A stretch of DNA of 64,000 nucleotides from Candidatus Velthaea sp. (GCA_050012475.1 JBEKHC010000001.1:1-64000), one strand, 5' to 3'; shown: positions 1 to 36,914, counted from the first letter of the stretch. Program-made: numbers and translations. The notes: generated by a model not told the origin, from the sequence alone.

Positions 1-1455
1 ATCGGTCTGCCGCTGGATGCACGCGACACGCTGGCCCTCGACCTGGCGAACCAGTACGCCACCTACCAGATCCCGATTAACACGGATCCGACCGATCTCA
101 ACGCCGGCTCGGTGTCGCTGCTGAACCAGGACGACGTTCAGCGCGAGTACGACCGGTTCGCGGCGCTTTCGTTCACACGCAATGACGCCGATGGGAACGG
201 CTACTTTCGGATCGTTCCGTGGACGCGCTACAATCGCGTGGTCTACGACGGCGATCTGGCGGCGGACGTCCAGGGCTACTACCTCGGAACGGCAGCGACG
301 CCGCAAACGTGCCCGGTGCCGATCAACAACGGGTTCGACTGTCCGGCGAACGGTTTGTTCCAAGACCGGGCTGCAGCCTACGTCGGTCTGCGCGTCTCCA
401 AAGGACGCACGATCGGCAAGCACACCCTGAGCTACGGCGTCGACTTGCAGCAGGAAGACTTCGACTCCAATGTCGCGATCGCGTTCGCGCCCGACGAGAA
501 TCCCAACGGCCCGACGGCCGGGCCGTTTCGCGACGTCACCGCGCAGCGCGGCTCGAATACATCGGCGTATGTGGAGGACGTGTGGACGCCAAACGGGCGC
601 TTAGCGATCAAGCCCGGGCTGCGCTACGACCATAGCACCGGCTATGTTTCGGGCGGACAGCTCAGTCCGCGCTTTGAGGTCGACCAGACGATCGCACCCG
701 GAACGGTCGCGCACGCCTACATCGGGCGTTACTATGCCGCACCCGGCTTGGAAGATACCCGGCGTGCTGCGGTCATCACCCAAACTGCACCGACGGCAAA
801 TCCGGTCTACGACCTGTTGCCCGAGCGCGACACCTTGCTCGAGGTCGGCGTGGCTCACGATTTCGGTGCCGACCGGCGCGCGTACGTCAGCGCCTACGAT
901 CGCACCGTGGTCAACGTGCTCGACACGACGAACTTACTCAACACGCCGCTCTTCGCGGTATACAACAGCGCCATCGGCGTCACGCGCGGGATCGAGGGAC
1001 GCTACGAGCAATCGTCGCCGACGACCACCATCGGGGCGTCGTTCACGTACTCACTTTCGCTGGCAGGCGGCGTCTCGGGCGGAACGTTTCTGTTCCCTCC
1101 GCCGGACGTCACCGATTTAACGCTTCAACCTGAAGACCACGACGAGACCTACGTAGGCGATATCTACGGCACGCGTCACTTTGGCGCTGACCGCAAAACC
1201 TACGTCACGCTCGAGTCCCAGTACGGGTCAGGCTTTCCGGTTGCGTTCTTGAACGGGACCGGCGGTCGTCTCCCGGCTCACTTCCAAGAAAACGTTGCGT
1301 TAGGACGGTTGCCCGTCGGCCATCACGTCGGTTTCGAGTTCAGCGTCGATAATCTGCTCGACCACCGCTGGCTCATCAAGGTCGACAACGGCTTCAATAC
1401 CACGCAATGGAACGCGCCGCGGCGCGCGCTCTTGCGCTTGTTGCTGCCATGGTAA
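1..1455 (+). CDS. TonB-dependent outer membrane receptor, 5'-partial
   Basis: Frame is open from base 1. Beta-barrel TBDR motifs: YVEDVWTP, GLRYD, LSPRF, LLPER, SVDNLLD, and a C-terminal aromatic residue (W). Confidence 0.85.
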   Translation: MGLPLDARDTLALDLANQYATYQIPINTDPTDLNAGSVSLLNQDDVQREYDRFAALSFTRNDADGNGYFRIVPWTRYNRVVYDGDLAADVQGYYLGTAATPQTCPVPINNGFDCPANGLFQDRAAAYVGLRVSKGRTIGKHTLSYGVDLQQEDFDSNVAIAFAPDENPNGPTAGPFRDVTAQRGSNTSAYVEDVWTPNGRLAIKPGLRYDHSTGYVSGGQLSPRFEVDQTIAPGTVAHAYIGRYYAAPGLEDTRRAAVITQTAPTANPVYDLLPERDTLLEVGVAHDFGADRRAYVSAYDRTVVNVLDTTNLLNTPLFAVYNSAIGVTRGIEGRYEQSSPTTTIGASFTYSLSLAGGVSGGTFLFPPPDVTDLTLQPEDHDETYVGDIYGTRHFGADRKTYVTLESQYGSGFPVAFLNGTGGRLPAHFQENVALGRLPVGHHVGFEFSVDNLLDHRWLIKVDNGFNTTQWNAPRRALLRLLLPW

Positions 1456-1517
1456 AGGCCAGACTGGAGGACTTCACGACCACGACCGACTTGCCTTAGG
1501 GTTAGGCAGGTCTTCGG

Positions 1518-1889
1518 TCATCGCCGAGGGAGTCCACACAGGCTGCTTCCGGGCCAGAAGTATGCTCCCTTCGGCGTGCTCACCGTGTCCAGCCACGTGA
1601 TCGTCCGTCGGATTTTGCCCGCAATCGACTCGGATGGCGGCGCACTGGACGAGATCGAAGATCTGCCGGCCCGCGCCGGCGTCAAAAGGAAATCTTGGCG
1701 CTCCGCGGTCCGCGCGCTGACCGTATCGCCAAGGCGAGCGAGTCTCGCGACGTCGACCGTCGTTGGGTTCGGCACGCCCGTGCTGGGCGATTCCGCTAAG
1801 TGGCCAAGGTATGCGACGGCCACAACTGCGGCCAGTCCGAGCATCCAGAGTGTAAGACGAAACAGCCCGCTTATCGAAGACCGTGCCAT
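1518..1889 (-). CDS. Hypothetical membrane-anchored protein (~123 aa)
   Basis: ATG at 1889 (MARSSISG...) followed by a hydrophobic helix LWMLGLAAVVAVAYLG. No family recognised. Confidence 0.35.
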   Translation of the reverse strand: MARSSISGLFRLTLWMLGLAAVVAVAYLGHLAESPSTGVPNPTTVDVARLARLGDTVSARTAERQDFLLTPARAGRSSISSSAPPSESIAGKIRRTITWLDTVSTPKGAYFWPGSSLCGLPRR

Positions 1890-2238
1890 CGTACGTCTTG
1901 ACGAAATGTTATTGCAGGGCTTTGGCGCACGGGAGCGTTCTTTCCGATTTGAGTTGCCGATATAAACGGTCAGATCGCAGTCCCATCGTGCACTTTGGAG
2001 CGACGACCGTTCCTTCTGGTTAGACCGGCAATCAAGGTTATCGGCCAAAGGCGCCTTGACTCGAGCTTCGCCGGAATGCGCTCGCTGCTGCCTCGAGCTT
2101 ACCATCACGGCGTTCGGTTGTATAGTACGAGGCACCACGTGGTCGCCGCGCGATCTGACGTTCATTCGACGCGCTGCAATGCGACGAGACCCGCACGATC
2201 TTTGGTGGTATGCTTAAGGAGAAGACGGAACGACGTTC

Positions 2239-2619
2239 ATGTTTGAGTGCACGTGGATCGAGGGCACCCGCATATTTAATATCCTCTTCGGCGTCGTCAA
2301 TGCCGCCGTTTGTTTCTCCGTTGCGATCCCGATCTTATGGTGGGTCCTGCCCAAACACCGGACCTGGTTCTTCTCCCCCAAGGTCGATCGTAATCAGGGC
2401 GCACAACTTTTTTGCCCGTCAATGGCGTCCACCGATGCGCTCTGCCGGTTCATACCGCACGAACCATTGCCTTGGGTTCACCCAGCGTTCTTCCTGACGA
2501 CGTTGATCATCGCCGCAGCACTCGGCCCACGTGTGGCCTACATCGCTCTCCGGCGCAGACGAGTAGCCGCACGAACGACCTTCGCTTCAGGTGGAGCGAA
2601 AAGGCTGGCTTCCCCATGA
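2239..2619 (+). CDS. Hypothetical membrane protein with Cys-containing loop
   Basis: Extended -10 TGGTATGCT (~2206-2214) and AAGGAG upstream. Two TM segments. Stop overlaps the sco start (ATGA). Confidence 0.6.
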   Translation: MFECTWIEGTRIFNILFGVVNAAVCFSVAIPILWWVLPKHRTWFFSPKVDRNQGAQLFCPSMASTDALCRFIPHEPLPWVHPAFFLTTLIIAAALGPRVAYIALRRRRVAARTTFASGGAKRLASP

Positions 2620-3212
2620 CGGTCGATCCGCTAACAGCGCCACGATCGCGCGCGCGGGTGATGACGCTCGGCTTCATCGTGTTGTTCCTCGCATTGAGCG
2701 CCATCCCGATTGTCGTTCTCTGGCAAGCCAAGGTTATCGTGGCGCCGGACTTCGCGCTGACCGACCAGGACGCTCGGCCCTTCAAACTTTCGGGACTTCG
2801 CGGACATCCCGTAGTCGTGTTCTTCGGGTACACGCACTGCCCCGATGTCTGTCCAACGACGCTCGCGCATTTAGCCAAAGCCATACATGCACCGACTGTG
2901 CCGGGCGACGAACACGTCGTATTCATTACGGTCGACCCAGGCCGCGATTCTCCCGGTGTGCTCAAACGCTACGTCCGGCTCTTCGATCCCGAGTTCATCG
3001 GACTCACCGGCAGCCTAAAGAGTTTAGAGCCAGTCTATGCGGCCTATCACATGGCGCGTCAGGCCGTCCGCATCAATCATGGCCCGGACGATTATTCGAT
3101 CGTACACGGAACATCGCTTTACTACGTTGGCCGTGACGGACTCATGAAAGGCTTCGGAAGCTGGGAAAACGACACGCCGGAACTCACTCAAGATTTGAAG
3201 AGGTTTCAATGA
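2616..3212 (+). CDS. sco: SCO1/SenC family copper chaperone
   Basis: FFGYTHCPDVCP (CxxxC), ITVDPGRD, conserved His (IVHG), N-terminal TM helix. Confidence 0.93.
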   Translation: MTVDPLTAPRSRARVMTLGFIVLFLALSAIPIVVLWQAKVIVAPDFALTDQDARPFKLSGLRGHPVVVFFGYTHCPDVCPTTLAHLAKAIHAPTVPGDEHVVFITVDPGRDSPGVLKRYVRLFDPEFIGLTGSLKSLEPVYAAYHMARQAVRINHGPDDYSIVHGTSLYYVGRDGLMKGFGSWENDTPELTQDLKRFQ

Positions 3213-3676
3213 TGCGTCACGTCCTAGGCCTTTTGTTGTTCGTGGTTGGCCTTCCGTTTATGGCCGTCGCCGACACGCGGGCGGTCAGCGTAACGGACGC
3301 ATGGTCACGTCCGGCGACGGGTACCGGCGTCGTCTATGCGACGCTTCACAATAATGCGGCGGTGGCCGACCATCTCATCGGCGCGTCTTCGCCGCTGGCG
3401 CGCCACATCGGCCTGCACCAGACCTCGGAAATGAAGATGTCCGGCATGTCAACGTCGATGGGCAACATGCCGATGGCCGGCTCGATGACCTCGATGAAGT
3501 CCGTGCCGTCCATTCCCGTTCCAGCGCACGGCACTACGGCGCTGGCGCCAGGCGGCTATCATCTCATGCTCGATCTGCGGAGCGACCTCAAAGCGGGAGA
3601 GACGGTTCCGCTGCGGTTACACTTCGCACGAGCGGGCTGGGTGACTGCCAGTGCGCAGGTGAGGCCGATCCGCTGA
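3209..3676 (+). CDS. Copper chaperone PCu(A)C
   Basis: Signal peptide, DAWSR, H...M...LAPGGYHLM motif, Met-rich insert; coupled to sco. Confidence 0.92.
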   Translation: MMRHVLGLLLFVVGLPFMAVADTRAVSVTDAWSRPATGTGVVYATLHNNAAVADHLIGASSPLARHIGLHQTSEMKMSGMSTSMGNMPMAGSMTSMKSVPSIPVPAHGTTALAPGGYHLMLDLRSDLKAGETVPLRLHFARAGWVTASAQVRPIR

Positions 3677-3790
3677 GCTGCGGCGCGGCACCGCAGTGAA
3701 GAAGCGTGGGGGCTGGCAGGCATGCTTCATGATGGTGGCGTTCGCAATTCCATCCGGCCGAAACGCGAGCGGTCCGGCTTACGTACGGGG

Positions 3791-4330
3791 TCAAGCTCTA
3801 GAATGGTCATGGGTCAGGGCCGCTGCTTCCTCAGCTTGGCACGTGCAGACGTGACGCGTGACGAGCAGTCGCCTAAGGCGACGGAGTTCTGAACTACTGA
3901 TATCCGAAAGAGATACAACCACTGTTCTCTGCGGCAGTTCGATAACGAGCGCGCACGACGTGAAACACACCTGCTTGAGAGAAGACCAATCGACGTGGCC
4001 GCTACCCTCGCTATCTTGCACGTGCGCGCCCGTGGCTCGTATCGTAACAAAAGGTCGTCGCGATCTCGCGGCGGATGATGCCGCCAGTGCAGGAATATCA
4101 GTCGCGCTCATGTACAGCGCAAGGCCGATAACGAGCCCACTTCCGAAAATGATGAGATCGGTTCGACTCTCCAGGCCGACGATAAGACGGTAGAATGCGA
4201 CCGCCAGCACTCTTCGCCGATGCCAGAATACATGACGATGTGCATTTCGTAGGTCGACGAAACGAGTGCTGACCGGCAGTCGCAGCGTCGATCCGCGATG
4301 TTCTTCTTCAACATTCTTTTTGGGTGGCAT
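3791..4330 (-). CDS. Hypothetical membrane protein, YcxB-like C-terminus
   Basis: Two TM helices followed by a small beta domain with a VDWSSLKQV pattern. Confidence 0.4.
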   Translation of the reverse strand: MPPKKNVEEEHRGSTLRLPVSTRFVDLRNAHRHVFWHRRRVLAVAFYRLIVGLESRTDLIIFGSGLVIGLALYMSATDIPALAASSAARSRRPFVTIRATGAHVQDSEGSGHVDWSSLKQVCFTSCALVIELPQRTVVVSLSDISSSELRRLRRLLVTRHVCTCQAEEAAALTHDHSRA

Positions 4331-4584
4331 GGTGCGACTCCCCGCACACGGTGAAGCTGATTGTTTCTCAATTCTCGGAAACGGCTCACGAAGCTGCGTT
4401 CCAATGCAGACCCATCACAAGTTCGCCTTGTCCGGCGCACCCGCGCGTCTGTCTTTGCGCGTCTCTCTTGAGAGCCGACAAACCTTGTCGACTCAAGGCA
4501 TTTCCGTCACGAAGGATCACCGAAAGTCCGGCTCACACCGGCTCTTTCGGCTGCCCTTGTCGTACTACCGCATACACGTGAACG

Positions 4585-6969
4585 CTATCGACCGAATCGA
4601 AGACCGATATCGAACTCACGTGGGGGTGCAAAGTGATTTCCCTGCGCGTTGAGCAAGGTCACATAGTACCGATCGTTCAGGAGGTTCTGGATGCGGGCGG
4701 TCAGCGCGACGCTCTTGCCGACGGCGATCCCCTTCTCCACGGCAAAGATGATATGCGGCGTCTCTTTGCAATCATCGGTCGCGGGGACGCAGATTGCCGA
4801 GGACAAGCCGCTGCCATACTCGCCGCTGCCGGAGAACCATCCGCCCCGACGGTCGTTGACCAGAAAACCGCTGGTAACGCTCCAGCGCTGTTCGTGGTCG
4901 GCTGGGGTAAAAATCGTGGGCGCTCCGAAGCACGGCGCCAATAACTGCGTTTCGCAGCCGGAGTTGAGCGAGATCGTATGGTTCACGTTGGCGTAGAAGC
5001 GACCGCCGTTCGCGACGGGTTGGACATACGCCAACGTCTCGGCGGAAAGGCGCCCTAACGTATAATTGATGTCCTGATGCAGCGCCGTCACGCCGACTTG
5101 CGTATCGTCGATGAGGTTGTTGGCGTTCTTCTGCCAGATGCGAAAGCCGAGTTCACCGGGGCCGGCGGGGACGTGGCCGCCGAACTCGAGCTGCGTGTCG
5201 CGCTCGGGTTTTAAGTCGAATTGCGCCTCGGTTGGCTGCAGCGGCAGGTTAAGGAGCTGCGCCGCACGCGGATCGACGTTCTCGAACGAGAACGGCTCGA
5301 AGAAGCGCCCGATGTAGGCATAAATCGATGCCCGCTTGCCGAAGAAACGCGTGAGCTTGAAGCGAGGACTGAATCCGCCGAACCCCTGATAGAAAGCGGT
5401 CGACCGGATCGAGAAGGAGTCGTAGCGCATCCCGTAGTCGGCTTCATATTTGTCCGAGAGTTTCCAGCTGTCTTGAAGGTACGACGTGTAGGTGTTGCCG
5501 ATGTTGCGGTTGTCGTCGACGACCGACGTTGGCGCATCGGGGGTGCTGGGGGTCACGATCGGTGCCAGGAAGTTGTTTGGCTGCAGCGTGACATCATAGG
5601 TTTTGTCAACGCGGGTGAGATCGTACCCCACACCGGCGCGCAATTCGTGTGCGCCGAAGCGTTCGACCAGATCGCTGTTGAAGATATAGTCGATCGCCGT
5701 CTTATTATCGTTGAGCGAATAGGCGCAGGTCGTCGGGGCGAAGTTTCCGGTTGACAGCGCGTCGGCGCAGTCGCTCGACGTTCCGCCGTTGCCGAACGGC
5801 GGCGCGATGACGTTGAGGGCCTCACCGTAGGTCCAATCGTTCTGCGGATCGCCGAAGTCTTGGATATGTGAGACCTTGAGCGCCGGACCGAAGCTGAGCG
5901 AGCCGTTGTCACCCAGCGAGTGCCGGAATTGCGCGCTCAGAAACGTGTCGTCTTGCGTCTCGTTGTCGTTCGTCGTCGCCGGCTCGCCGTAGTTGATGTC
6001 GTTCGGGATCTGATACGTCCGCAAGCTGTGGATGAGGGTAATGTCGGTGAAGTCGTTTTTTCCGCTTGGCAGCGTCACGCGAAAGAACTGGTTGGCGTTG
6101 CTGCCTTGGTTGTGGGGTGAAGAAAAATCCGGCGGATCGAGCGCGCGATCCGTTTGCTGATTACGAATCGCGATGTCGAAGGCGCCGCCGTTGCCCAGCG
6201 GCGCATGATACCCCAGTGACTGGTCGATATCCCCGTAAGATCCATAGCGGACGCTGCCGTCGAATCCCGGCGGACCGGTTCCCGCGCGGGTCGTGATGTT
6301 GAGCACGGACCCGAACCGCAGGCCGTATTGAGCCGGATACGCCCCCTCGATCGCGTCGAGATACGAAATGTCGTTGGGATCGATTTCACTGCCGATTTCG
6401 CGATTAAGCGCCTGAGGGATCGGGATACCGTCGACGACGTAGTCGATCACGCCGTGGTCGCCGTTCATGTGCACGACGCCGTTGGCGCCCCGCGCCGTTC
6501 CCGGCAGCTGAATGAGCGCCTCAGGGAAACTATCGCTCGACGGCGCACGCGTGAGATCGCTGGCGTTGAGCTGGACGTCGGCGCCGCTGCCGCGGACGGG
6601 ATTCGCGCGGACGACTTTGACGCTGCCGATTTGCTTGATCGGCGTGAGTGCGAGCGTCACGTCTGCGCCGCCGCTGCCAAGATCGACGCTGAGTTCGCCC
6701 GAGATCCCGGCCGAACTGGCCGCTATGCGATACGTACCGAACGCCAAGGCGTTGAAGGAGAATCGGCCATGGTCATCCGTTGTCGTGCGGATGACCCGTT
6801 GATTTCCCGACAAGGTCACGGTGGCGTGGGAAATGCCCACGCCGTTTCTCGTCACCGTGCCGGCGAGATCTGCGCCGGCCGTCGCGGCCTGAACTGGAAG
6901 GGCGGTAAGGAACGCCAAAAAGAGGGTCAGAACCGCCGCGCTGATGCGACGGGCGGGGAAGAAAATCAT
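4585..6969 (-). CDS. TonB-dependent receptor, likely metal uptake
   Basis: Signal peptide, carboxypeptidase-regulatory-like N-domain, plug with HMNGDH and YVVDGIP, YLQDSWKL, LKPERD, IQNLLND. GAGG RBS before ATG 6969. Confidence 0.9.
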   Translation of the reverse strand: MIFFPARRISAAVLTLFLAFLTALPVQAATAGADLAGTVTRNGVGISHATVTLSGNQRVIRTTTDDHGRFSFNALAFGTYRIAASSAGISGELSVDLGSGGADVTLALTPIKQIGSVKVVRANPVRGSGADVQLNASDLTRAPSSDSFPEALIQLPGTARGANGVVHMNGDHGVIDYVVDGIPIPQALNREIGSEIDPNDISYLDAIEGAYPAQYGLRFGSVLNITTRAGTGPPGFDGSVRYGSYGDIDQSLGYHAPLGNGGAFDIAIRNQQTDRALDPPDFSSPHNQGSNANQFFRVTLPSGKNDFTDITLIHSLRTYQIPNDINYGEPATTNDNETQDDTFLSAQFRHSLGDNGSLSFGPALKVSHIQDFGDPQNDWTYGEALNVIAPPFGNGGTSSDCADALSTGNFAPTTCAYSLNDNKTAIDYIFNSDLVERFGAHELRAGVGYDLTRVDKTYDVTLQPNNFLAPIVTPSTPDAPTSVVDDNRNIGNTYTSYLQDSWKLSDKYEADYGMRYDSFSIRSTAFYQGFGGFSPRFKLTRFFGKRASIYAYIGRFFEPFSFENVDPRAAQLLNLPLQPTEAQFDLKPERDTQLEFGGHVPAGPGELGFRIWQKNANNLIDDTQVGVTALHQDINYTLGRLSAETLAYVQPVANGGRFYANVNHTISLNSGCETQLLAPCFGAPTIFTPADHEQRWSVTSGFLVNDRRGGWFSGSGEYGSGLSSAICVPATDDCKETPHIIFAVEKGIAVGKSVALTARIQNLLNDRYYVTLLNAQGNHFAPPREFDIGLRFGR

Positions 6970-7084
6970 CAGTTGTCCTCGAGGCGAATGCAGCAAATCC
7001 GCGATGCAAACGCATCGCGACGAAAGTCAAATCAACAGCATCGATAAAGGCGCGCAGAGTCGCCTTTGTGCCGTTAGAAGCTGA

Positions 7085-7711
7085 CTAGGCTGTGCTCGGC
7101 GGAGGACGGTAGCGGAACGAGAATGGCGAGCAGCGGACCGGGCGCGCGGGCGGCCGGGGGTAGGGTGCAACGCCGTTTTCGACTTGTGGCGATGCGCCAA
7201 ATCGAATCGTCCAGACGAGTGATAGAACGAACTCGAGCATCCGTCGTTTGCCGAATGCAACGACGAGCGCACCGCAAAAGGCCGTGAGCATCGCAGCCAG
7301 CACTGCTGCAACGACATCACCGCCATGTAAAGGGCATCCCTCACCAAGCTGCGAGATGACGAAGAAAGCAAACTGCGCGGCGAATGCCGCTGCGGTAAAC
7401 CCAGCACCCTCGCCCCCGAACGGCAGGGCCGAGATCAGCGACCTCCCCCGTGCACGGCAATCCTCAGGCGGCAGCAACGCCAGCGCGACGATCGCAGCGA
7501 CAACGCAACTCGCTGCAATGACCCCGAGATAGGCGTGACGGCCGGAGAACACCAGAGACAGGTCCAGGCGCCAGCCGAGACCGGCGAGCTCGGCCATGAG
7601 GTGCGTCACGATCCCGAACAGAGTCGTAACCGCGCCGAAGAGCAAGCCGGCAGCGAGACGGCGGCCAATCGGCAGTGTCAGCTTTCTGCGACAGCCCCGT
7701 ATCATTGCCAC
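7085..7711 (-). CDS. Multi-TM membrane protein with C-terminal RPPP (candidate regulatory uORF)
   Basis: About 4-5 TM helices, a GEGCPLHGGD loop, and a Pro-rich tail ending RYRPPPSTA. Start uncertain. Confidence 0.65.
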   Translation of the reverse strand: MAMIRGCRRKLTLPIGRRLAAGLLFGAVTTLFGIVTHLMAELAGLGWRLDLSLVFSGRHAYLGVIAASCVVAAIVALALLPPEDCRARGRSLISALPFGGEGAGFTAAAFAAQFAFFVISQLGEGCPLHGGDVVAAVLAAMLTAFCGALVVAFGKRRMLEFVLSLVWTIRFGASPQVENGVAPYPRPPARPVRCSPFSFRYRPPPSTA

Positions 7712-9728: not shown

Positions 9729-11291
9729 CTAGGTGGCGACGCGCAGACAGGCGCTCACCAGTGCGGCACGGCTCGACACGCCGAAGGCGCGGAAGACGTG
9801 CTTGGTGAGCATGTTCTTGATTGTCTGCTCGCCGACGTTGCGCGCTTGTGCGATTTCGCGGTTCGTCTTGCCGCGGCAGACGAGGACGACGACTTCGCGC
9901 TGCGCAGCCGGAAGCGACGCCACGATCGGATGACGTTCGAGCGCGGCAACCCGGTCCGTGACGTTGCGGTCCAGCGTTGCGGCGATGAAGTTCGACGTCC
10001 CGGCCACATGGGTCGTCACGTACGAGTGGACGTCCGCATCTTCGACGAGCCTCAGCAGCGCATGGCCGGCGATCGCCGCGCGCCGCACGTACCCGACGTC
10101 GCGCAACAACTCGAACGAGGTCCGATAACACATGCCGGCGCGCTCACGCTCGCCGCGGGCTTGCGCGATGACGCCGGAAATGAATGCTTCATCGGCCGTT
10201 TGGCGCACGTCGCCGCCCGAAGCCAGATAGACCTTCTCGACCGGCGCAAGGCCGTAGTAGCGCGCACAAAGTTCGACGGCCCGCGCGCTGTCGAAATGCG
10301 CGCAGGCCTCGGCTACCGACAGCAGGGCGAAGCGTTCTTCACCGACCAGCGAACCGAGATCGAGCGTCGACAGCAACGCATCCGCGCGTTTGGCGAACAT
10401 CGTCGCTGCATGGATCTCGCCAGCATTGCGCGCGATGGTCGAACTCAAGCTCCAAGCGAAAACCTCGAACGCGGCCGTCGGCACGTTTTCGCGCGCGAGC
10501 GCGGCGAGTTGATACGCCGTGAGCGTATTGCCGGCGAATTCGTTGTACATCGCCTGATGGGCCACCGTGAGGTACTGCTGGGCGGTTAGGCCGGAAGACC
10601 ATTCGATGCCGCCGGCACGCGCCTGAACGAAAGCCGCCATATCGCGATCGAAAAGCTCCGCTGCGTAGATCGAAAGCGTGGCGATCGCGGTCGCGGTGAT
10701 CGCGCGATCGTGCGCCTGACAATCATCGAGCCGCACGAGCGTCGCGCAGAACGCTTCGGCCGAGCGCCGATAGTCGCGCCGAGCCGCGTAGCAAAATGCT
10801 TGGAGTTCGAGCGATCGCGCATGGATGATGTCCGAACGCGGATCGACTTGGGCCAGATACGTTTCGGCGGTGCCCAGCTCGCGTTTGGCCCAGAATCCGA
10901 GTGCCGTCGCGAACGCGATCTCCGACCGCACGGCAAAGTGCGCGCCCTCGGAACGGCCGGCAGCCTCGAGCAGAATGGCGATCCCGGTGTCGGCATCATC
11001 CTGTCGGATGCGCGCGCTGGCTACCAGCATTTGGGCGGTGAGTGAGGCGTCGATGGTGGTGTGCGTTTGCAGCGTGTCGACAATCGCGCGCTGTGCTTCG
11101 TTCGGCCGTCCCGTGCGCAAATATGCACGCGCGGTTAAGAGGGCGATTTCGGAAGCGGTCGCGACCGAACCGACGCGCATGTCCGAACAGATCTCGAGAC
11201 AGCGCTCGAAATCACCCTCAAAGTACGCCAGCTTTGCGTCCGAAACGGAAGCACGCCGTCCGGCGAGGATCGGCTTTGGTGCCATCTCCAT
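9729..11291 (-). CDS. TPR-like domain protein with C-terminal LuxR-type HTH (transcriptional regulator)
   Basis: C-terminal LPAAQREVVVLVCRGKTNREIAQARNVGEQTIKN. Ala/Leu-rich helical repeats upstream. No Walker A and no receiver domain. Confidence 0.85.
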   Translation of the reverse strand: MEMAPKPILAGRRASVSDAKLAYFEGDFERCLEICSDMRVGSVATASEIALLTARAYLRTGRPNEAQRAIVDTLQTHTTIDASLTAQMLVASARIRQDDADTGIAILLEAAGRSEGAHFAVRSEIAFATALGFWAKRELGTAETYLAQVDPRSDIIHARSLELQAFCYAARRDYRRSAEAFCATLVRLDDCQAHDRAITATAIATLSIYAAELFDRDMAAFVQARAGGIEWSSGLTAQQYLTVAHQAMYNEFAGNTLTAYQLAALARENVPTAAFEVFAWSLSSTIARNAGEIHAATMFAKRADALLSTLDLGSLVGEERFALLSVAEACAHFDSARAVELCARYYGLAPVEKVYLASGGDVRQTADEAFISGVIAQARGERERAGMCYRTSFELLRDVGYVRRAAIAGHALLRLVEDADVHSYVTTHVAGTSNFIAATLDRNVTDRVAALERHPIVASLPAAQREVVVLVCRGKTNREIAQARNVGEQTIKNMLTKHVFRAFGVSSRAALVSACLRVAT

Positions 11292-11381
11292 CTGATGGCC
11301 GATATTCTACAGGTCTGCTAAAACCTTTACCTTTTGCATCCTCCCACTGCGAAATTTGATTCAGGACTTGCCTCGCAGTCC

Positions 11382-11450
11382 TTAGCTAGGCCAGCTCAAG
11401 TGGGCGCATACGGTGTGAGCGATGGTGACCAGGATCGTCAAGATTTGCAT
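11382..11450 (-). CDS. 22-aa hydrophobic peptide MQILTILVTIAHTVCAHLSWPS
   Basis: SD AAGGA 8 nt before the ATG. Hairpin AGGACT...AGTCCT (~11363-11382) right after the stop. Directly upstream of the TPR-LuxR gene. Confidence 0.6.
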   Translation of the reverse strand: MQILTILVTIAHTVCAHLSWPS

Positions 11451-11500
11451 GTCGTTTTTCCTTGCCTTTTCGGTTGAACCGGTGGGTAAAACAGTACAAA

Positions 11501-11524
11501 CGTACCATTCTCTACGACGGTACG
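11501..11524. promoter_or_regulatory. Inverted repeat, candidate operator upstream of peptide ORF
   Basis: CGTACCAT-N8-ACGGTACG (7/8 symmetric). Confidence 0.4.
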
Positions 11525-11696
11525 CTGCAATACAGTGACGAGCCTCGCTTGAGGCACCCGTCCTCACATAAAGACTCGTTCACAATCTAGGGAGCCCAGT
11601 AAGGGCTTGCAACGCGCAAGCCGATAATGCGTCCGGAAAATCGCGAAATGCCCGCCCTCGTTGCACGAAAGGACCGCCGCGGCGGGGCTTCGGCAG

Positions 11697-14555
11697 CTAG
11701 TGGTGCTGGTCGTGCAGACGGCAGAGTGGCGCGCGGGCGCCGCTCAAGACCTCGCTCGCGCGGTCGAGCAGCTCCCCGCCGGCGACGGGATGCGGTCCGG
11801 TAAAGACGCCGCCGGGCGTTTCGATGAAGAATGCGTCGGCTGCGACGTGCCCGGCGAAAGCTCGCGCAGCAAGTCCCGCGGCGACCGGGTTGTGCTGCGC
11901 GAAGGCGACATAGAGCTGCCCCCCGTGGCGCACGAGCGCGGAGATCGTCCCGTACACGATCGCCGGACCGAGCGCGAACGCAAAAGCGACGTCGCGCTCC
12001 TCAACCCGCTCGTCCCGGGCGGGAAGGCGGCCAGACAACAAGGTGAACGATGCCTCGACCACCGCGGGGATGGTTCGCCGCGGCGCGCAGCGGACGCAGG
12101 CGAGCATCTCGGCGACTCGCTCGAGCGCAACGACTGCGGCCGCTGCGGGCGCCTCGCTGCTGGGCGCCGGCAGCGCCGGCGCGGGCGGCCCGGCGGCCGG
12201 TTCGCCCGGCGCGGCCGCTGCCGCCGGCGTCGCCGGCGGCGGTTCGGCGCGCAGGAGCTGCGGGCGCAACGCTTGCAGTTCGACGAGCAGTTCGGGTGCG
12301 GCGACGCCGCGCGTTGGGCGTCCGGAGGCCGAGACCGTCACCGCGACGTCGGCCCGCCCCAGCGCGACCGCCAAAGCGCGGCGGTCTTCGCGCGAATAGT
12401 TTTCGCGCAACTTCGCTTGATGCGCGTACCAGGTGAATTTCGCCGTTCGCGCCGTCAGGGCGTCGCCGACGCTGTCCTTGGGGATCATCCCGTAGGTTGG
12501 GCTGAACAGGAACGCGTCGGGCACGTAGTATGGCGGAAACGAACCGGCGCGCACGTCGACGACGTACACGCGCTCGAACCGGCGCGCCTTGACCGCGTCG
12601 ATCGAGCCGACGACGACGGCGTCGGCGGCGTCATCGCTGAGGATGGGTCCGCTTTCACCGCGCGCGATGCGTTCGCAATACGCCAACGCGGCGGCGAGGC
12701 CGGTATCGCGATTGCGCGCAGCGTAGCGCGCGATAGTTGCGAGTAGAGCGCCGACCACCGCGCTGCGCCGGCGGGCGCGCGCGCCGGTCTCGTTGGGCCG
12801 GCGTTCGTGCATTCCGCCGTCGTTCACGATCGCAGCGGCCGCCTGAGCCACGCCCGCGGTTTGGGCGAGGCGCTGCCAGCTCGCGCGCCGGGTGCGAAAA
12901 GCGATCAACCGATCGCGCACCTCCGGTGCAAGATCGGCATCGCGGTCGCCCCGCACGACATTGGTTCCCAACCGCAGATCGCGCCGCCGGTCCCAGCGCC
13001 GGCTGCCATCGGTCTCGTCGGGCGGGAGGTCGAAAAGGAGCGCTTGCGCGCTGGCCGGCTCGCCGCACAGGATCGCCAGCGAGGCGTCGTTGAGGGCCAG
13101 CAAGGGGAGCTGAAGCACGCGCAGGATCCAGGCGTGCGCGAACGGATCGACCGTCGACCAGAGCAGGGCGAGCGCGTCGAGGGCGTCGTGCCGAACGAAC
13201 AGGGCCGCGTCGCCCTGCAACGCGATCGGGATGTCGCGGGCGACGAGCGCGTCCTCGTAGGCGGCAAGCGAGCGCAGCGAGCGGTGGACGACGGCCAGCC
13301 GGCCGGGCGGGGTTCCCGCGGCGATCTGCCCGGCGATGCTGTCGGCGACGAAAGCCGCTTCGTCGAGCGGCGTCGCGGCCCGATGCAGCTGCACCGCATC
13401 GCCGGACGGAACCGCTGGCGCGTGCTGCGGATCGAGCAGCACGTCGACGACCGCGGCGATTTGCGCGGGGACGCGGTAGTTTGCCTGCAACGCGAGCGTC
13501 ACGGCCGCGGCGCCGAAGACGCGCTCGGGGCGGGCGCCGGCGAACGTTTCGGTCGCCGCCTGCGGATCGCCGGCGACGGTGACGCCGGCGAGCGCGGTGC
13601 CGAAGATCGCCGTCAGCAGCCGGAACTCGCCGGTCGGCAGATCCTGCGCGTCGTCGACCAAGGCGATCCGAAAGTTGCGGCGGTACGTTCGCGCCAAAGC
13701 GGGATGCTCGTCGAGCAGCCGGGTTGCTTCGGCGACGGCATCGGCGGGTGTCAGGCAGCCGTGCAGCACGAGTTCGTCTAAATACGACCGGTAGACTTTG
13801 GTGATGATCTTCGCTAAATCGAGTTCGCGCCGCCGCTGCCGCTCGAGTTCCGAAGCGCCCACCGCGAGCGCGCCGCGGTGTTCGTCCTTGGTTGCGAACA
13901 GGAGCGCCGGAGCCGAAAGGTTCGGCGGGTTGGCATAAAATGCGGTTGCGCCGCGCAGCGCCGCGGCATAAAACGCATCGGGACCGATCTGCGCGGCGCG
14001 CAACTTGCGGATCAGTCGAAGCACCGCGGCGGCAAACCGGTCCGGCGCGCGCAAGCCGGGAATTTCGGGATCGATGTCGGGCCCCAGAAACTCGTTCCAA
14101 TCGGCCGAAAAGAGCGGTGCGATCGCGCGCTCGAAGATCTCCTCGGCATCGTACGGGTCGATCGCTTCGAGATCGTACGCCAAGTTGGTGAGGGTCGCGT
14201 GGTCGGCCAGGATGTCGAATGCCAAGCGGTCGAGCCCACAGCCGACGTAGCGGCCGTCGCGCTCGTATTCGCGCGCCCGGCCCGGCGGCAGCTGCGCGCC
14301 GATGCGCGCGGCGAGGATTGCGGCGGCTTTGCCGCGCGGAGCGGTGACGATCGTCGCGCCGATCGTCAGCGACGGATCGCGGCCCAGCAGGGCGACGTAG
14401 CGGCGAGCGAGCGTTTCGGTTTTTCCGCTTGCCGCGCGCCCGGTAATGGCCAACAGCGGCGCATCGGCGGGCGCATCGATCGCGCGGCGTGCCGTCACGT
14501 CGGCGATCTCGCCGCCGGCGCGGGCCGAACTCTGCGGGAATTCGCGCCCGTTCAC
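11697..14555 (-). CDS. UvrD/AddA-like SF1 helicase-family protein with degenerate motifs
   Basis: GRAASGKT, LVDDAQD, AGDPQAA, ANYR, EDRRALAVALGRA. Confidence 0.8.
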   Translation of the reverse strand: MNGREFPQSSARAGGEIADVTARRAIDAPADAPLLAITGRAASGKTETLARRYVALLGRDPSLTIGATIVTAPRGKAAAILAARIGAQLPPGRAREYERDGRYVGCGLDRLAFDILADHATLTNLAYDLEAIDPYDAEEIFERAIAPLFSADWNEFLGPDIDPEIPGLRAPDRFAAAVLRLIRKLRAAQIGPDAFYAAALRGATAFYANPPNLSAPALLFATKDEHRGALAVGASELERQRRRELDLAKIITKVYRSYLDELVLHGCLTPADAVAEATRLLDEHPALARTYRRNFRIALVDDAQDLPTGEFRLLTAIFGTALAGVTVAGDPQAATETFAGARPERVFGAAAVTLALQANYRVPAQIAAVVDVLLDPQHAPAVPSGDAVQLHRAATPLDEAAFVADSIAGQIAAGTPPGRLAVVHRSLRSLAAYEDALVARDIPIALQGDAALFVRHDALDALALLWSTVDPFAHAWILRVLQLPLLALNDASLAILCGEPASAQALLFDLPPDETDGSRRWDRRRDLRLGTNVVRGDRDADLAPEVRDRLIAFRTRRASWQRLAQTAGVAQAAAAIVNDGGMHERRPNETGARARRRSAVVGALLATIARYAARNRDTGLAAALAYCERIARGESGPILSDDAADAVVVGSIDAVKARRFERVYVVDVRAGSFPPYYVPDAFLFSPTYGMIPKDSVGDALTARTAKFTWYAHQAKLRENYSREDRRALAVALGRADVAVTVSASGRPTRGVAAPELLVELQALRPQLLRAEPPPATPAAAAAPGEPAAGPPAPALPAPSSEAPAAAAVVALERVAEMLACVRCAPRRTIPAVVEASFTLLSGRLPARDERVEERDVAFAFALGPAIVYGTISALVRHGGQLYVAFAQHNPVAAGLAARAFAGHVAADAFFIETPGGVFTGPHPVAGGELLDRASEVLSGARAPLCRLHDQHH

Positions 14556-16531
14556 TAGCGCCCGAACCGGTCGGCGGTTGCGAACGGCCGTTCGCGGCAG
14601 CCGTCTTTATAGGCGCAATAGCGGCACGCTTCGGGATCGTTCGTTGCCGGATATGATACCCGGGTCGAACTCGAAAGCAGCCGCGCGTATTCGATCATCT
14701 TGCCGCGCGCGCGCTCGAGTTCGCCCACCGAGATCGTGCCGGCGGGATTGTCGCCGCGCCGCGAGCCGCTGTCGGGCAGTTCGGTCAGCGTGATGTCCAG
14801 TTCGATCGGCGCGACGTCGAGCAGCGCGTCTTTGAGCGGAATCAGCGCGAGTTTGGTCACCCGGTCGCCGGCCGCCGTCCGCGCCCAATAATAGAACGGC
14901 AATTGAAATTCACGAAACGCGGCAACGTCCGCGCGATACTGGGCCGCGTTCGTTGCGATGCTGCCGGTTTTGTAGTCAATGACCATAACACTGCCGGTGC
15001 GATCGTCGCGGTCGAGCCGGTCGATGTACCCCACGAACGCATGGCCGTCGAGATCCAACTCCGTCGAAACCTCGCAGCCGATCACCTCGAAGGGCGCCCG
15101 CCGCGCTCGCTCGACCAGCCATTGGAAATAGCGTTTGGCGGTGCGGCGCGCGCGCCGGCGCTGCAATTCGTATTCCACCGGCGCGTCGAACCGGCCGCGA
15201 TAGCGCTCGAAGGCCGAATTGATGCATGCTTCGAGATACGCCGGCGCCGCGCTGTTCTCGAACTCCGCCGCGCGTGTGTAGCGGAGATGGAAGTCCTCGA
15301 GCGCGGCGTGAAAAGCCGTGCCGTAAAATGATGCGGATGAACCGCGGTCTTCGACCGCCGCGCACACGTAGCGGAAATACCACTTGCGCGCGCACTCGGC
15401 ATACGCGTTGAGCGACGACGCGCTGAAATGCATCCGTTTGACCGCGACCGGCCGCGGGGGTTCGCCGGCGGCCGCCGCTGCGGGCTGCGCGACGAAAGCC
15501 GGTGCGGGCGGAGGTTGCGCGCCGGCAAACTCGGCGGCGAACTCCGCGGTGAGCGCGGCGGCGTCCCACTGCGGTCCCAGCGTTCGGGCCCGATCGAAAT
15601 CGCGCGCGACCCGAATCAGTGCCGCGACGGTGGGATCGTGGTCGAGCGTGAAGGCCGCGCCGATCGCGGCCAGGACCGTCGAGGCTCCGGCGTCGGGTGC
15701 GCAGTAGGCGCGAGCGACGGAGCGCAGGCCGCGGGCGAAGGCGGCAGCATCGGCGCGCGCCGTTTCGCCCAGCGCGACTTTCCCCGCGTCGATGATGTCG
15801 AGCAGCGGCGCGCGGCCGGCGCTGGCCGTCAACAGCGCCTGCGCGTCGTCCAGACCGATGCCCGAGATCCGGCAGAGGATCGCGCGGCGTGCGGCGGCGT
15901 CGCTTTCGCTCGCCGCGTACTCCAGCATGGCGGCGACGTTGCCGACCAGCGCTGCGTCGATGACCGGCGGCGCGAGCGGACCCAAATCGACCGTATCGAG
16001 CGTCATCCCGGCGGCGGCGCACAGCCGCCGCCAGGCGAAGCCGCGGTCGTCGTCGGGGGTTAGCAGAACGGCGTCGATCCGCAGCGCGCCGGGTTCGATC
16101 GGCCGGCGCTCGCCGGCGAGCGCGCGATGCAGCGCGTCGGGCACGTCGAGGACGTTGGCAAACGCAAGCAGCGTGCGGTAGTGTTCGATGAGCGTTTCGA
16201 ACGGCGTACGTTCGCCTGTTTCGTCCAGCGCGGCGACCACCCGGGCGGCAAACGATGAACTGGCGCGGATTTGCGGCGGCAAGCCGATATCGTCGCGCGT
16301 CGCGGCGATCCGGCGCACGATCGCGCGCCGTTCGGCCTCACCGACCACGCGAACGCCGGTCAACCGTTCCAGAAACGCTGCCGGCGTGATGATTTCACCT
16401 GCCGCGCGCGCGAACATCATCGCAAGCGAGGCGTCGAGTCCGGCAGCGAGTCGCCGTTCGTCGACGAGGATCGGGATCACGGAAGATGAGGTTCGCGCTT
16501 CGGTTCGCTCAAACCCGTAACGCGTGAGCAC
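14555..16531 (-). CDS. AddB/RecB-like PD-(D/E)XK nuclease with 4-Cys (Fe-S staple) motif
   Basis: FSASSLNAYAEC, YGTAFH, GYIDRLD, IDYKTG, CRYCAYKDGC; coupled to the helicase gene. Confidence 0.85.
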   Translation of the reverse strand: MLTRYGFERTEARTSSSVIPILVDERRLAAGLDASLAMMFARAAGEIITPAAFLERLTGVRVVGEAERRAIVRRIAATRDDIGLPPQIRASSSFAARVVAALDETGERTPFETLIEHYRTLLAFANVLDVPDALHRALAGERRPIEPGALRIDAVLLTPDDDRGFAWRRLCAAAGMTLDTVDLGPLAPPVIDAALVGNVAAMLEYAASESDAAARRAILCRISGIGLDDAQALLTASAGRAPLLDIIDAGKVALGETARADAAAFARGLRSVARAYCAPDAGASTVLAAIGAAFTLDHDPTVAALIRVARDFDRARTLGPQWDAAALTAEFAAEFAGAQPPPAPAFVAQPAAAAAGEPPRPVAVKRMHFSASSLNAYAECARKWYFRYVCAAVEDRGSSASFYGTAFHAALEDFHLRYTRAAEFENSAAPAYLEACINSAFERYRGRFDAPVEYELQRRRARRTAKRYFQWLVERARRAPFEVIGCEVSTELDLDGHAFVGYIDRLDRDDRTGSVMVIDYKTGSIATNAAQYRADVAAFREFQLPFYYWARTAAGDRVTKLALIPLKDALLDVAPIELDITLTELPDSGSRRGDNPAGTISVGELERARGKMIEYARLLSSSTRVSYPATNDPEACRYCAYKDGCRERPFATADRFGR

Positions 16532-28730: not shown

Positions 28731-29128
28731 ACGTTGGGTCGCTCCCCCGCAATAGGAAGCCTACGCCGCTTGCACCCGTCGCTGAGGCCGGTTCAAAAGC
28801 GCGTGTTCGCGTTCGCCTTGCGGCAGCTTGCCGATGCGACGCGGCGCGTTTGACGCAAAACGGCTTTGTCGCGCGCGGTTTGCGCATGGTTATTAAGAAC
28901 GCCTATACCGCCGCATCGGTACGGCGCGTCGTTCGTGTCCCGTTCGGGTGCGCCACGCTCTTGTTTTCGATTCAAGCCGCACGCCGAACGGTACCGGAGG
29001 ACTCAACATGGCTAACGATAATGTGACGAGCGAGTTTGAGCCGTTGTCATACGTGATGTGGCGGCCGGTTCTGTCTCGTGCGTACCGCACCGGGACGCGT
29101 CCAGTCCACCGTCCGAAAGGATCAGCGC

Positions 29129-31117
29129 ATGAGATTTCCCTCGGTACGATCGACCGTCGCCGGTGCCGCGTTTTGCGCCGCAGCGGGCTCGTTTGCGGCG
29201 CCGGCTTCCGCCGCGGCTCCGGCCGGCCTCGCGGCCGTGCCGTTCACGGCGATCGCCGGCAGCGCGAGGGTCCCAACCGGCGTGCCGACCGGGGCATTGA
29301 ATCGAGCGAAAATGTCGATCGAGGTCGTGCTCGCCCCGCGCAGCACAGCGCAGCTTTCCGCACTGCTTGCTAACGTCTCCAACCCGAACAGCGCAAACTA
29401 CAAGCATTGGCTGCAGAAGGGTCAATTCAAGACCTTGTTCGCTCCCAGTGCCGCTCAAATCGCGGCGGTCGCCGGTTATCTGCAAGCGGCCGGATTGACC
29501 GTTGGGCAGTCGTCGTCGCCGTTCTTGGTCCGAGCCAGCGGCTCGAGCAGCGCAGTCGCGGCCGCGTTCCGCACGAACCTTCGCACCTACCGCGACGCTC
29601 GCGGCGTCGCCTATTTCTCAAACGACTCGGCAGTGCAAGTGCCGGCAGCGTTTGCTGCCGGGGTGTACGGCGTGCTTGGACTTTCGAGCACCGCTCGCAA
29701 CCAACCGCAACTCGTGATGGCCGGGAGGCATTCCGCGTCACAGAGCACCAGCTGCGAAGCGCCGTATCCGACGGCCGCTCAGATCATTGGATTGTTCATC
29801 GATGGGATAAACGTTCCGTTTGGTTACGGCGGCGGCCCGGGGTGCACCGGACTTACACCGTCGCAGGTCAACTCGATCTACGGCGCGCCCAATGTGGGCC
29901 GACGCGGCAAGGGCGCGGGCGTCACGCTGGGGGTCTTCGAGCAGTCCGCTTATCAGCATTCGGATATCGCGACATGGGCGCACACCTTTTTGGGGCCGAA
30001 ATTTACGCCGCCGCTCGTCGACATCACCGTGGACGGCGGGCCGCTCGCCCCGGTCTGCCCGACGCTCGACCTTTGTCCGCCGCAATACAACGGGTATTGG
30101 GCGGACGCGGAAGTCGATCTCGATATCGAAGAGCAGCTTGCCGTTGCACCGGCGGCGAGCCACGTCCTCGTCTACAATGCGCCGACCGACATAACCGGTC
30201 AAACGACGTTGGATAATTACCTGCGAATCGCCGACGACGATCTTGCCGACGTCGTCAGTTCGAGCTACGGCAACTGCGAGAACGTACTGCCCCCCGCGCT
30301 GGTCCAGGCGGAAAACGTGTTCTTCGAGCAGATGGCCCTACAGGGGCAAAGCATGTTTGCCGCAGCGGGTGACAACGGGGCCTTCAGTTGTCTGGAAAAC
30401 AACGGCTCAACGATTCTCAATGCGCTCGACCCTTCGGCCCAACCGTGGGTAACGAGCGTGGGCGGGACGTCCTTGGAATCGTTCAATCCCGGCACCGCGC
30501 CGCATCCGGCCTACCCGGCGGGCGTCGAAACGGTCTGGAACCCCGGCGATCTTTGTAATTCCCGTGCAAATGAAGGCGGCGAGTCCGGGTTCTTCTGGTG
30601 CGTAGCCGTCGGTTCAGGCGGCGGCGGGAATAGCCAGTATTGGGCTCGTCCTTTCTTTCAGTTCGGCCCGGGAATCGCCAACCGGTATAGCACGCAGTGC
30701 GCGCTCGCCTCGGGCGCGGCGCCGTGCCGAGAAACACCCGACGTGTCCGCCAACGCCGACGCGTTTACGCCCTATGCCGTGTATTGCACGGGCTCAGCTG
30801 CCCTGCCGTTTAGTCAATGCGCGAGCTTCGGCGGCGGCGGCTGGCTTGCGGTCGGCGGCACCAGCGCCTCATCGCCGGTGTTGTCGGCGATCATCGCCGA
30901 CCGCGATGGTTTTCAGGCAACGAGGACCGGCCCCGCCAGCGCTCTGCTGTACTGGCTCTATAACTTCGATCCGCACGGATATTTCAACGACATCACCGGC
31001 ATCGGCCAAACCACGAACAACAATGGGTTTTTCCCGACCGTCCCCGGCTATGACTTAGCGACCGGCGTCGGTACGCCCAAAATGGCCCCGATCATTACCG
31101 GTTTCCCGCGCAAATAA
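29129..31117 (+). CDS. Secreted S53 (sedolisin-like) peptidase with prodomain
   Basis: Signal peptide, EVDLD (Glu/Asp), AAGDNG oxyanion Asp, GGTSASSP, FNDIT...GYDLATG; AAAGGA RBS. Confidence 0.92.
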   Translation: MRFPSVRSTVAGAAFCAAAGSFAAPASAAAPAGLAAVPFTAIAGSARVPTGVPTGALNRAKMSIEVVLAPRSTAQLSALLANVSNPNSANYKHWLQKGQFKTLFAPSAAQIAAVAGYLQAAGLTVGQSSSPFLVRASGSSSAVAAAFRTNLRTYRDARGVAYFSNDSAVQVPAAFAAGVYGVLGLSSTARNQPQLVMAGRHSASQSTSCEAPYPTAAQIIGLFIDGINVPFGYGGGPGCTGLTPSQVNSIYGAPNVGRRGKGAGVTLGVFEQSAYQHSDIATWAHTFLGPKFTPPLVDITVDGGPLAPVCPTLDLCPPQYNGYWADAEVDLDIEEQLAVAPAASHVLVYNAPTDITGQTTLDNYLRIADDDLADVVSSSYGNCENVLPPALVQAENVFFEQMALQGQSMFAAAGDNGAFSCLENNGSTILNALDPSAQPWVTSVGGTSLESFNPGTAPHPAYPAGVETVWNPGDLCNSRANEGGESGFFWCVAVGSGGGGNSQYWARPFFQFGPGIANRYSTQCALASGAAPCRETPDVSANADAFTPYAVYCTGSAALPFSQCASFGGGGWLAVGGTSASSPVLSAIIADRDGFQATRTGPASALLYWLYNFDPHGYFNDITGIGQTTNNNGFFPTVPGYDLATGVGTPKMAPIITGFPRK

Positions 31118-31156
31118 CGTAGGGCGCACGCGGATGCGGTCAAACACATCCGAGCC

Positions 31157-32521: not shown

Positions 32522-32543
32522 TTCGTGCTAAGAACGGGCCGCG

Positions 32544-34358: not shown

Positions 34359-34519
34359 GCAAGTGCCTCTCGACCGGCGGCGTGACGTGCGCAATCGAAT
34401 CCGCGCGCGCCGGCTACTTCAAGGCTTTGCCGCCGGCCCGCCCGCAAGCCTTGTCGAGCGCACGAGCTCGAACAAAGCTTTACAGCGCAAACGTGACAGC
34501 GCGCATTTCGAAACGAAAA

Positions 34520-34796: not shown

Positions 34797-34799
34797 CTG

Positions 34800-36641: not shown

Positions 36642-36836
36642 TGCCTTTCAAAAGAACGAGACCAAACGCCCGACCGATCGACGACCGCGCGCGCTGGCGT
36701 CCCATTCGTTCTCGCCGCGCCGGCTTCCTAACCGAAATTTGGCTTTTTTGCGCTTTTGCTACTGCCGGCTCACGCGCGTCGTCCAGGCAAAATGGCATGC
36801 GCCGCACCGCCTCTCGTCCTTCGTCCGAGAGAAGCA

Positions 36837-36904: not shown

Positions 36905-36914
36905 GGGCGTGCGT

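Follow-up and report, generated by a model that had tools for sequence, protein, structure and literature searches.

One way to put the question raised by this locus is to ask whether a very small gene and the regulator gene that follows it, both on the minus strand of a 64,000-nucleotide stretch of Candidatus Velthaea sp. DNA (GCA_050012475.1 JBEKHC010000001.1:1-64000; here the window, whose positions serve as coordinates throughout), form a peptide-signalling cassette. A first-pass annotation had read them in that way, and this reading is now supported by family-wide pairing of the two genes, a conserved core in the peptides, the fit of peptide designs to the receptor tree, and a conserved palindrome. 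The cassette is real, and it is an entry to a large, apparently undescribed peptide-receptor family. It probably works as a pheromone circuit, in which an exported, clipped and re-imported peptide would be sensed by a regulator made of tetratricopeptide repeats (TPRs) and a LuxR-type helix-turn-helix (HTH). The parts on which the argument turns are the following:

11382..11450, minus strand: short hydrophobic propeptide gene of 22 codons, MQILTILVTIAHTVCAHLSWPS (open reading frame and homologous loci)
11459..11463, minus strand: Shine-Dalgarno sequence AAGGA, 8 nt 5' of the ATG (sequence)
9729..11291, minus strand: whole receptor gene, TPR-LuxR, 520 aa, single copy in the assembly (open reading frame and genome search)
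9951..11246, minus strand: TPR-like superhelix, receptor residues about 16-447 (AlphaFold model, Foldseek, VIA, Pfam TPR matches in the family)
9753..9908, minus strand: LuxR/GerE HTH, residues 462-513 (Pfam GerE, E 1.7e-5, over the cut-off)

The 22-codon open reading frame (ORF), its Shine-Dalgarno (SD) sequence and a hairpin just after its stop had all been described, and all are in place on the minus strand. A longer start for the small ORF, in a 61-aa GTG frame, was dismissed, because the SD and the homologs point to the ATG at 11450. An ORF of 22-25 codons occupies the same place in 10 of 10 aligned close loci, with an SD-like purine-rich stretch in most; peptide identity to the window is 14-36%, against 56-76% for the TPR domain of the receptors. 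In the window, 90 nt separate the peptide stop from the ATG of the 520-aa ORF. The account of that protein also holds: Pfam, the AlphaFold model and fold searches agree on TPRs with a C-terminal LuxR HTH, and Pfam finds no ATPase or receiver domain. The superhelix is predicted to be the peptide-binding domain; the gene is single-copy in an assembly that is 94% complete.

The homologs supply the main test of the cassette. Small ORFs beside homologous regulators had been set beforehand as the test of the reading. A receptor gene was scored as paired if its strand carried, with its end a short way upstream, an SD-led ORF of 18-260 aa whose N-terminus is hydrophobic. Loci comprised the initial homologs and 117 from the listed matches (3 listed matches were left out as duplicates or at a contig edge, and 206 unlisted ones lay outside the set); 15 of the 161 receptor frames were dropped (4 duplicate or non-family, 11 with less than 600 nt upstream) and 146 were tested. 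Such an ORF was found at 112 of the 146, versus 189 of 2138 long ORFs of the window's genome; one with a core of the GG/P type was found at 97/146 receptor loci, versus 35/2138 control ORFs. Five of 28 other LuxR-HTH genes of the same genome have such an ORF and none has the core; no cognate peptide gene was found beside any of them, the long LAL-like ones included.

The peptides themselves come in distinct designs, each of which maps to receptor clades on the receptor tree. Among 116 pairs, 9 precursors have 26 aa or fewer, 48 combine a basic N-region with a lipobox-like Cys, and 59 have a hydrophobic leader and intermediate length; a basic residue occurs within the first 6 aa in 0/9, 48/48 and 1/59 of these, respectively. 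Eighty-five are no longer than 100 aa and 31 are longer, with homologs exceeding 200 aa. In the window's clade the peptides are 22-25 aa long and most end in GGPS or similar; in a sister group they measure 38-92 aa and carry D-x(1-4)-GG(G)P cores. DTPGG is the core of another clade, where it lies inside the peptide, and in a further, large clade the precursors are of lipoprotein type, with DSVGGGP-like cores in up to 10 repeats. Several receptor clades have no peptide. In the 22 peptides of the DTPGG clade, core columns are about 90% conserved and tails about 20-40%. The motif D/E-x(1-4)-G-x(0-2)-P occurs in 78/116 peptides, versus 34.7 in shuffled ones. A coding signature is seen in eight close loci, where the Gly and Pro of the core are each written with all four of their codons and every one of the three stop codons is represented. 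To judge from such patterns, the precursor core is under selection.

The first-pass annotation had allowed for a mature signal with an aromatic residue, and on this point it needs correction: the family core is Gly-Gly-Pro, often after Asp or Glu, with no aromatic, and the Trp in the window's SWPS end is exceptional. The closest sister locus (L036, 79% receptor identity) ends in GSVS, the other eight close loci in GP, GPS or GPT. The signal of the window's propeptide is likely its C-terminal part, a divergent form of the GGPS end of its clade, from which SWPS differs by two non-synonymous changes. A search of the window's genome for orphan GGP-type propeptides gave none that was convincing among 8 candidates, and an atlas search with one precursor gave only leads under 0.9.

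The region upstream of the peptide gene offers a candidate for the DNA site of the regulator:

11493..11506, unstranded: palindrome GGTAC-GTTT-GTACT (family form RGTAY-N4-RTACY), centre 49 nt 5' of the peptide ATG (alignment, pattern counts)
11501..11524, unstranded: inverted repeat of the first-pass annotation, made of half of the 11493-11506 palindrome and an upstream GTACC half-site (sequence, alignment)

The palindrome at 11493-11506 is predicted to be the operator. GGTAC-N4-GTAC(C/T), with a 4-nt spacer, is present in 9/10 aligned close loci; RGTAY-N4-RTACY is exact in 65 of the 116 pairs, centred 35-80 nt 5' of the peptide start (shuffles: mean 0.25, maximum 3); and when palindromes of the form 5-N6-5 were sought without a preset pattern, 59 of the 97 upstream regions left after de-duplication had one, versus 8.3 in shuffled ones. 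Some loci have a second copy between the peptide and receptor genes. A clade with a different recognition helix has sites like RGTMA-N4-TKACY, a shifted half-site, in several loci. The palindrome sits on or just 3' of TANNNT (-10-like) hexamers, so repression is suggested as the simplest model. The repeat at 11501-11524 is indeed present, with 7 of 8 pairs, and was dismissed as the operator in favour of 11493-11506 on grounds of conservation: it is kept as a repeat in 3/10 close loci, with spacers of 8, 8 and 3, and appears with a spacer of 7 in one strain contig. Its upstream half-site overlaps a -10-like hexamer, TACCGT (11522-11517), which may be a promoter element; the extra half-site may matter, as three half-sites occur in one clade too.

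The site is not enriched in the window's genome (GTAC-N4-GTAC 21 times, versus 14-55 for other spacers, with 13 exact sites) or in five relatives (27 sites, versus 36 for the reversed pattern), so any regulon is likely small; a genome-wide regulon was dismissed, and no shared target was found. Individual sites elsewhere were noted. A more distant 511-aa TPR-LuxR-like gene (L183:1116-2651, minus strand) has a perfect palindrome at 2511, near its start, and no peptide gene was found there; cross-regulation or a peptide-less subfamily is possible. At L172:1501 a palindrome lies between a receptor gene, just 3' of it, and a 186-aa gene without known function, a possible direct target. At G000:C47:24329 a near-match lies between divergent genes, one of them LuxR-HTH, close to apparent polysaccharide genes.

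A palindrome in front of the peptide gene would also be expected if the small protein were an output of the regulator (a secreted effector, a surface peptide or a multi-core modified-peptide precursor) and the TPRs sensed something else. Multi-core precursors of ribosomally made, modified peptides carry a leader plus repeated cores, and the longer precursors here resemble them in this; peptide-less receptors, moreover, retain many conserved TPR residues. Against this stand the one-to-one pairing maintained across deep receptor clades and the neighbour scan: the 30 largest of 118 neighbour clusters (7 of the 30 without a Pfam match) include no recurrent modifying enzyme or dedicated exporter. 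An output of this kind is quite unlikely.

The pheromone circuit that we prefer would run as follows. Long precursors would be exported by the Sec/lipoprotein route, and those of 22-25 aa may be clipped within the membrane by an M50/RseP-type protease, by analogy with streptococcal SHPs; the mature signal would be the C-terminal few residues of the clipped peptide. It would be re-imported by an oligopeptide ABC transporter, and the core peptide would bind the TPR groove and alter the regulator's hold on the palindrome before the peptide gene. Most simply, a repressor would be released by the peptide, giving positive feedback on peptide synthesis, though the receptor may instead be an activator. 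Action from cell to cell is part of this proposal. Family-5 peptide-binding proteins number 13 in the window's genome, and M50 proteases are encoded there at 3 places.

A related but narrower possibility is that the peptide is indeed the ligand and the loop closes within one cell, by unexported precursor or by periplasmic fragments returning to the cytoplasm, so that it reports secretion, periplasmic proteolysis or the state of the envelope, not density. The diderm host, the lipid anchor that 48 of the 116 precursors would carry, and the polysaccharide-export genes found behind the receptor in 21 clustered loci all suit such a loop. Dozens of paralogous pairs with different cores in one genome fit specificity channels better, as does the fast divergence of the peptides relative to the TPR domain (14-36% versus 56-76%), and we regard confinement to one cell as unlikely.

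Several points weigh against a pheromone circuit and have to be set beside the evidence for it. The genomes are kin, so that the pairing counts are non-independent trials. No peptide is detectable at 34/146 receptors, and whole clades have none. The core expression and the palindrome pattern were fixed after the data had been seen. As the core pattern was chosen post hoc, unchanged rules were applied to 40 held-out paralogs from four genomes (uncounted rows: 9 already seen, 4 duplicate, 4 split, 2 with short flanks): the ORF was found at 27/40 and the core at 23/40, leaving 13/40 with no detectable peptide, and the GTAC-only pattern at 0/40, so that different sites, or no site at all, are probable in other clades. 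Covariation was also looked for: similarity of receptors and of cores does correlate (Mantel rho 0.41), but linkage alone predicts that. Eukaryotic TPR proteins match the receptor fold as well as or better than RRNPP receptors do. The export route of the 9 short peptides is in doubt, none having a basic N-region; control searches showed Opp-type transporters and M50 proteases to be widespread among bacteria; and in a diderm host the peptide must also pass the outer membrane to act between cells. Transcription of the peptide gene is weakly supported: contigs identical to it (11271-11497 and 11298-11492; 3 RNA runs) come from the RNA libraries of two studies, but cover is thin and carry-over of DNA possible. 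Finally, the window's peptide and that of L036 lack the GGP core, so that this copy could be decaying, and receptor residue 166 is Phe, where most of the family have Trp.

These last points could mean that the family is real and the window's peptide a decaying relic, its receptor on the way to becoming an orphan. The loss of GGPS by two non-synonymous changes, the change of Trp166 to Phe and the failure to find another GGP-type propeptide in the genome would agree with that. Yet the SD and the palindrome are intact, and so are the start, stop, length and hydrophobic pattern of the ORF; the sister locus L036 keeps the ORF with a divergent end of its own; and the covering contigs of three DNA runs contain no variant of the peptide gene. 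Decay is decidedly improbable. As SD, length, hydrophobicity and operator are intact, SWPS most likely represents an ancestral GGPS signal altered in its specificity.

The signals that flank the small gene bear on one further possibility:

11466..11486, minus strand: 5' leader hairpin, GCCGG-loop-CCGGC in homologs, partly broken in the window (alignment, weak fold)
11363..11382, minus strand: hairpin immediately 3' of the peptide stop (folding, alignment)
11304..11330, minus strand: conserved block GTAAAG...TAGAAT directly 5' of the receptor ATG (alignment of close loci)

Could the ORF encode a leader peptide that acts in cis to set the level of read-through into the regulator gene? It lies on the same strand 90 nt upstream, the post-stop hairpin follows it, and contigs from RNA libraries bridge the gap. 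Homologous precursors, on the other hand, exceed 200 aa and carry lipoprotein signals and repeated cores, and the receptor gene has a conserved promoter-like block of its own; a cis-acting leader is hardly credible. The GTAAAG...TAGAAT block is likely the receptor gene's own promoter. The post-stop hairpin, spanned by those same contigs, is terminator-like and likely leaky: a T-rich tract often lies downstream of it in homologs. A terminator scan of the window left it uncalled. Any role of the 5' leader hairpin would be conjectural. A structured RNA was dismissed, Rfam giving no match of note and the fold z being -1.0. Ends of RNA contigs (11492, 11497, 11325-11327) were rejected as transcription starts, because DNA contigs break at similar places (11487, 11325).

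How does the preferred circuit compare with known systems? The receptor's AlphaFold model is all-helical repeats plus the HTH (pLDDT 91, pTM 0.82), and besides GerE Pfam gives a weak TPR_16 match; many family members have Pfam TPR matches. A fold search gave Z scores of 20.1 for LGN/Pins, 18.0 for OGT, 17.1 for PlcR, 16.6 for NprR, 16.5 for Rap, 16.0 for AimR and 14.7 for MalT domain III, and a second search returned generic TPR proteins; the TPR fold is thereby confirmed and no single family picked out, because generic TPR proteins score as high. The family profile matches the C-terminal domains of DesR, VraR, GerE and NarL. No NCBIfam model scored over its cut-off for receptor or precursors; one sub-threshold AimP match fell on a signal region.

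By analogy, the cassette would likely work as the RRNPP systems (Rap-Phr, PlcR-PapR, NprR-NprX, AimR-AimP, PrgX, Rgg-SHP) do. A TPR protein lies beside a gene for a small propeptide with a hydrophobic leader (10-100 aa in RRNPP systems; 22 aa in the window, adjoining in 112/146 homologs), and fold similarity to RRNPP receptors reaches Z 15.6-17.1. RRNPP propeptides have a basic N-region and a hydrophobic core and are secreted by Sec (or, for SHP, PptAB); the hydrophobic core is present here. Phr cores can be repeated and orphan Raps exist, according to the available part of PMC5199041; paralog expansion, orphan receptors (compare the peptide-less clades) and repeated cores are likenesses to Rap-Phr, as far as that source and the accessible text of PMC10075063 go. 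It is not an RRNPP member, however, because its TPRs are N-terminal, its HTH is C-terminal and LuxR-type, and its host is diderm. In RRNPP receptors, by the same portion of PMC10075063, the TPRs are C-terminal and the HTH or effector N-terminal, whereas here the TPRs span about 16-447 and the HTH 462-513. Receptor length (about 250-500 aa there, 520 aa here) is a marginal difference on a soft criterion, and many precursors here are lipoproteins of more than 100 aa. No RRNPP receptor is among the 60 of 61 sequence-profile matches in the PDB that were listed, and remote homology is possible. The study that introduced RRNPP_detector, in the part available, took Gram-positive Bacillota as its scope and dropped clusters with N-terminal TPRs (PMC10075063).

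Rgg-SHP comes closest in the size of its short peptides. As the available text of PMC3679016 describes them, SHPs are 22-26-aa hydrophobic precursors whose mature C-terminal part starts with Asp or Glu and ends Gly-rich, and shp genes are targets of their own regulator; many of the longer cores here likewise read D/E-hydrophobic-GG. SHPs, in that account, have basic N-termini, with divergent gene order in groups I and II (PMC3679016), whereas the genes here are in tandem and the short peptides have no basic N-region; in the cores here Pro follows the glycines, and the regulator's domains stand in the opposite order, with an HTH of another class.

MalT and the other LAL (STAND) proteins share the plan of a TPR-like sensor followed by a C-terminal LuxR HTH. 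The known ligand of MalT is a sugar. Domain III of MalT matches at Z 14.7, TPR_MalT clusters are among the feature matches at 0.88-0.91, and one family member matches TPR_MalT; the difference is that there is no N-terminal AAA+/NOD ATPase here, the model being helical repeats and HTH only. Descent of the receptor from a LAL protein is plausible. From the LuxR/LuxI regulators of acyl-homoserine lactone (AHL) signalling, and from NarL, the receptor differs in that Pfam and NCBIfam matches cover only its C-terminal end, with no autoinducer-binding or receiver domain. PipR, a diderm LuxR-HTH regulator that responds to peptides imported by an ABC transporter, and OryR, LuxR solos of Proteobacteria, resemble it in host type, HTH and its predicted use of imported peptides (PMC4981722, available part); PipR differs in being an AHL-receptor homolog that responds to plant or dietary peptides, with no self-encoded propeptide and, in the same part of that source, no TPR described.

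A broader proposal is slightly more probable than not: an independently evolved pheromone/TPR-LuxR family in a diderm soil phylum, convergent on RRNPP and probably derived from the sensor-HTH half of MalT/LAL, with three precursor designs (22-25-aa hydrophobic peptides, Sec peptides, and lipoproteins carrying as many as 10 tandem cores), roughly 25 channels in one genome, a readable peptide code and a covarying code of recognition helix and operator. Homologs at 60-70% identity are in records of Vulcanimicrobiota bacterium and Candidatus Velthaea sp., and the two nearest structural clusters in the atlas are mostly Vulcanimicrobiota. The receptor family is nearly confined to one family of Vulcanimicrobiota (Eremiobacterota): in a sample of the phylum, in which at most 4 candidates were scored per genome and, for this tally alone, the unpublished genomes G246 and G276 were included, a match at E 1e-10 was found in 155/301 genomes, namely 152/206 in the window's family, 1/3 and 1/22 in two others, and 0/69 in the remainder. 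It is not universal in the host family, since genome G011, 99% complete, has no match at E 1e-25. With a broader profile, five genomes yielded 28, 31, 5, 2 and 0 matches, fragments included; in G232 (28; loci L191-L232) and G274 (31) many receptors have their own distinct upstream propeptide, and a few are split or have an internal stop. A library without taxonomy gave 832 clusters (50% identity) at E 1e-30 or better, a few of them long HTH-repeat proteins. The sequencing runs in which the locus occurs carry the labels soil, peat, wetland or plain metagenome. The representative of the phylum in culture possesses an outer membrane (PMC9758169, available part), and the window contains TonB-dependent receptor genes.

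Some homologs stand apart. P0178 (954 aa) and P0065 (837 aa) are matched over two stretches and have a single HTH, which may reflect doubled TPR domains; P0178, examined as a possible ATPase-fused form, has no ATPase Pfam match. L034, from a record titled Bryobacterales, has the same receptor match and upstream sequence as L033 from Vulcanimicrobiota, likely a binning error rather than transfer. A link to mobile elements was dismissed: no plasmid matches the locus, 5 viral loci match the C-terminal region only, and the UvrD-like neighbour is syntenic in close relatives.

Neighbours differ by receptor clade. A UvrD-like helicase gene lies upstream of the cassette, in the window and in close relatives, and a GNAT gene downstream. 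The helicase is in tandem with a PD-(D/E)XK nuclease gene (11697-16531, minus strand), syntenic upstream in close relatives; we take the pair to be AddAB/AdnAB-like. A polysaccharide export (Wza-like) gene, a candidate capsule or exopolysaccharide output, lies directly 3' of the receptor in 21 loci (L014, L025, L032, L134 and 17 more), nearly all of the DTPGG clade. Another neighbour cluster, represented by a fusion of an adenylate/guanylate cyclase with an ATPase of the NB-ARC type, is found downstream of the receptor in L027 and 16 more loci, most of them in the lipoprotein clade. The CPBP/Rce1 protease, three S53-type proteases and three TonB-dependent receptors that had been suggested as processors or importers of the peptide are present in the window, but nothing ties them to the cassette, and they do not figure among the annotated recurrent neighbours of homologs. 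The three pro-kumamolisin (S53-type) genes cluster with a cytochrome P450 and a TonB-dependent receptor at 29078-39797; the other two TonB-dependent receptors lie at 112-7711 with the copper chaperones SCO1/SenC and PCuAC, in what is likely a cluster for the uptake of copper or another metal.

Full-text literature searches, whose scope leaves out most subscription journals and all supplements, found no description of the cassette, and the words LuxR, quorum and peptide do not occur in the main text, as available, of the Vulcanimicrobium paper (PMC9758169). The filters to drop when other phyla are screened are now evident: the Gram-positive restriction and the exclusion of N-terminal TPRs (PMC10075063, available part). 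With more than 100 natural receptor-peptide pairs, defined peptides and a predicted operator, concrete tests are cheap, and the family could yield orthogonal peptide-inducible switches. Self-encoded peptide pheromones with cytoplasmic receptors are regarded as a trait of Bacillota; this cassette family suggests that a phylum of the Gram-negative type, from oligotrophic soils and peat, follows the same logic, and it could reveal how peptide signals pass two membranes and how their specificity diversifies.

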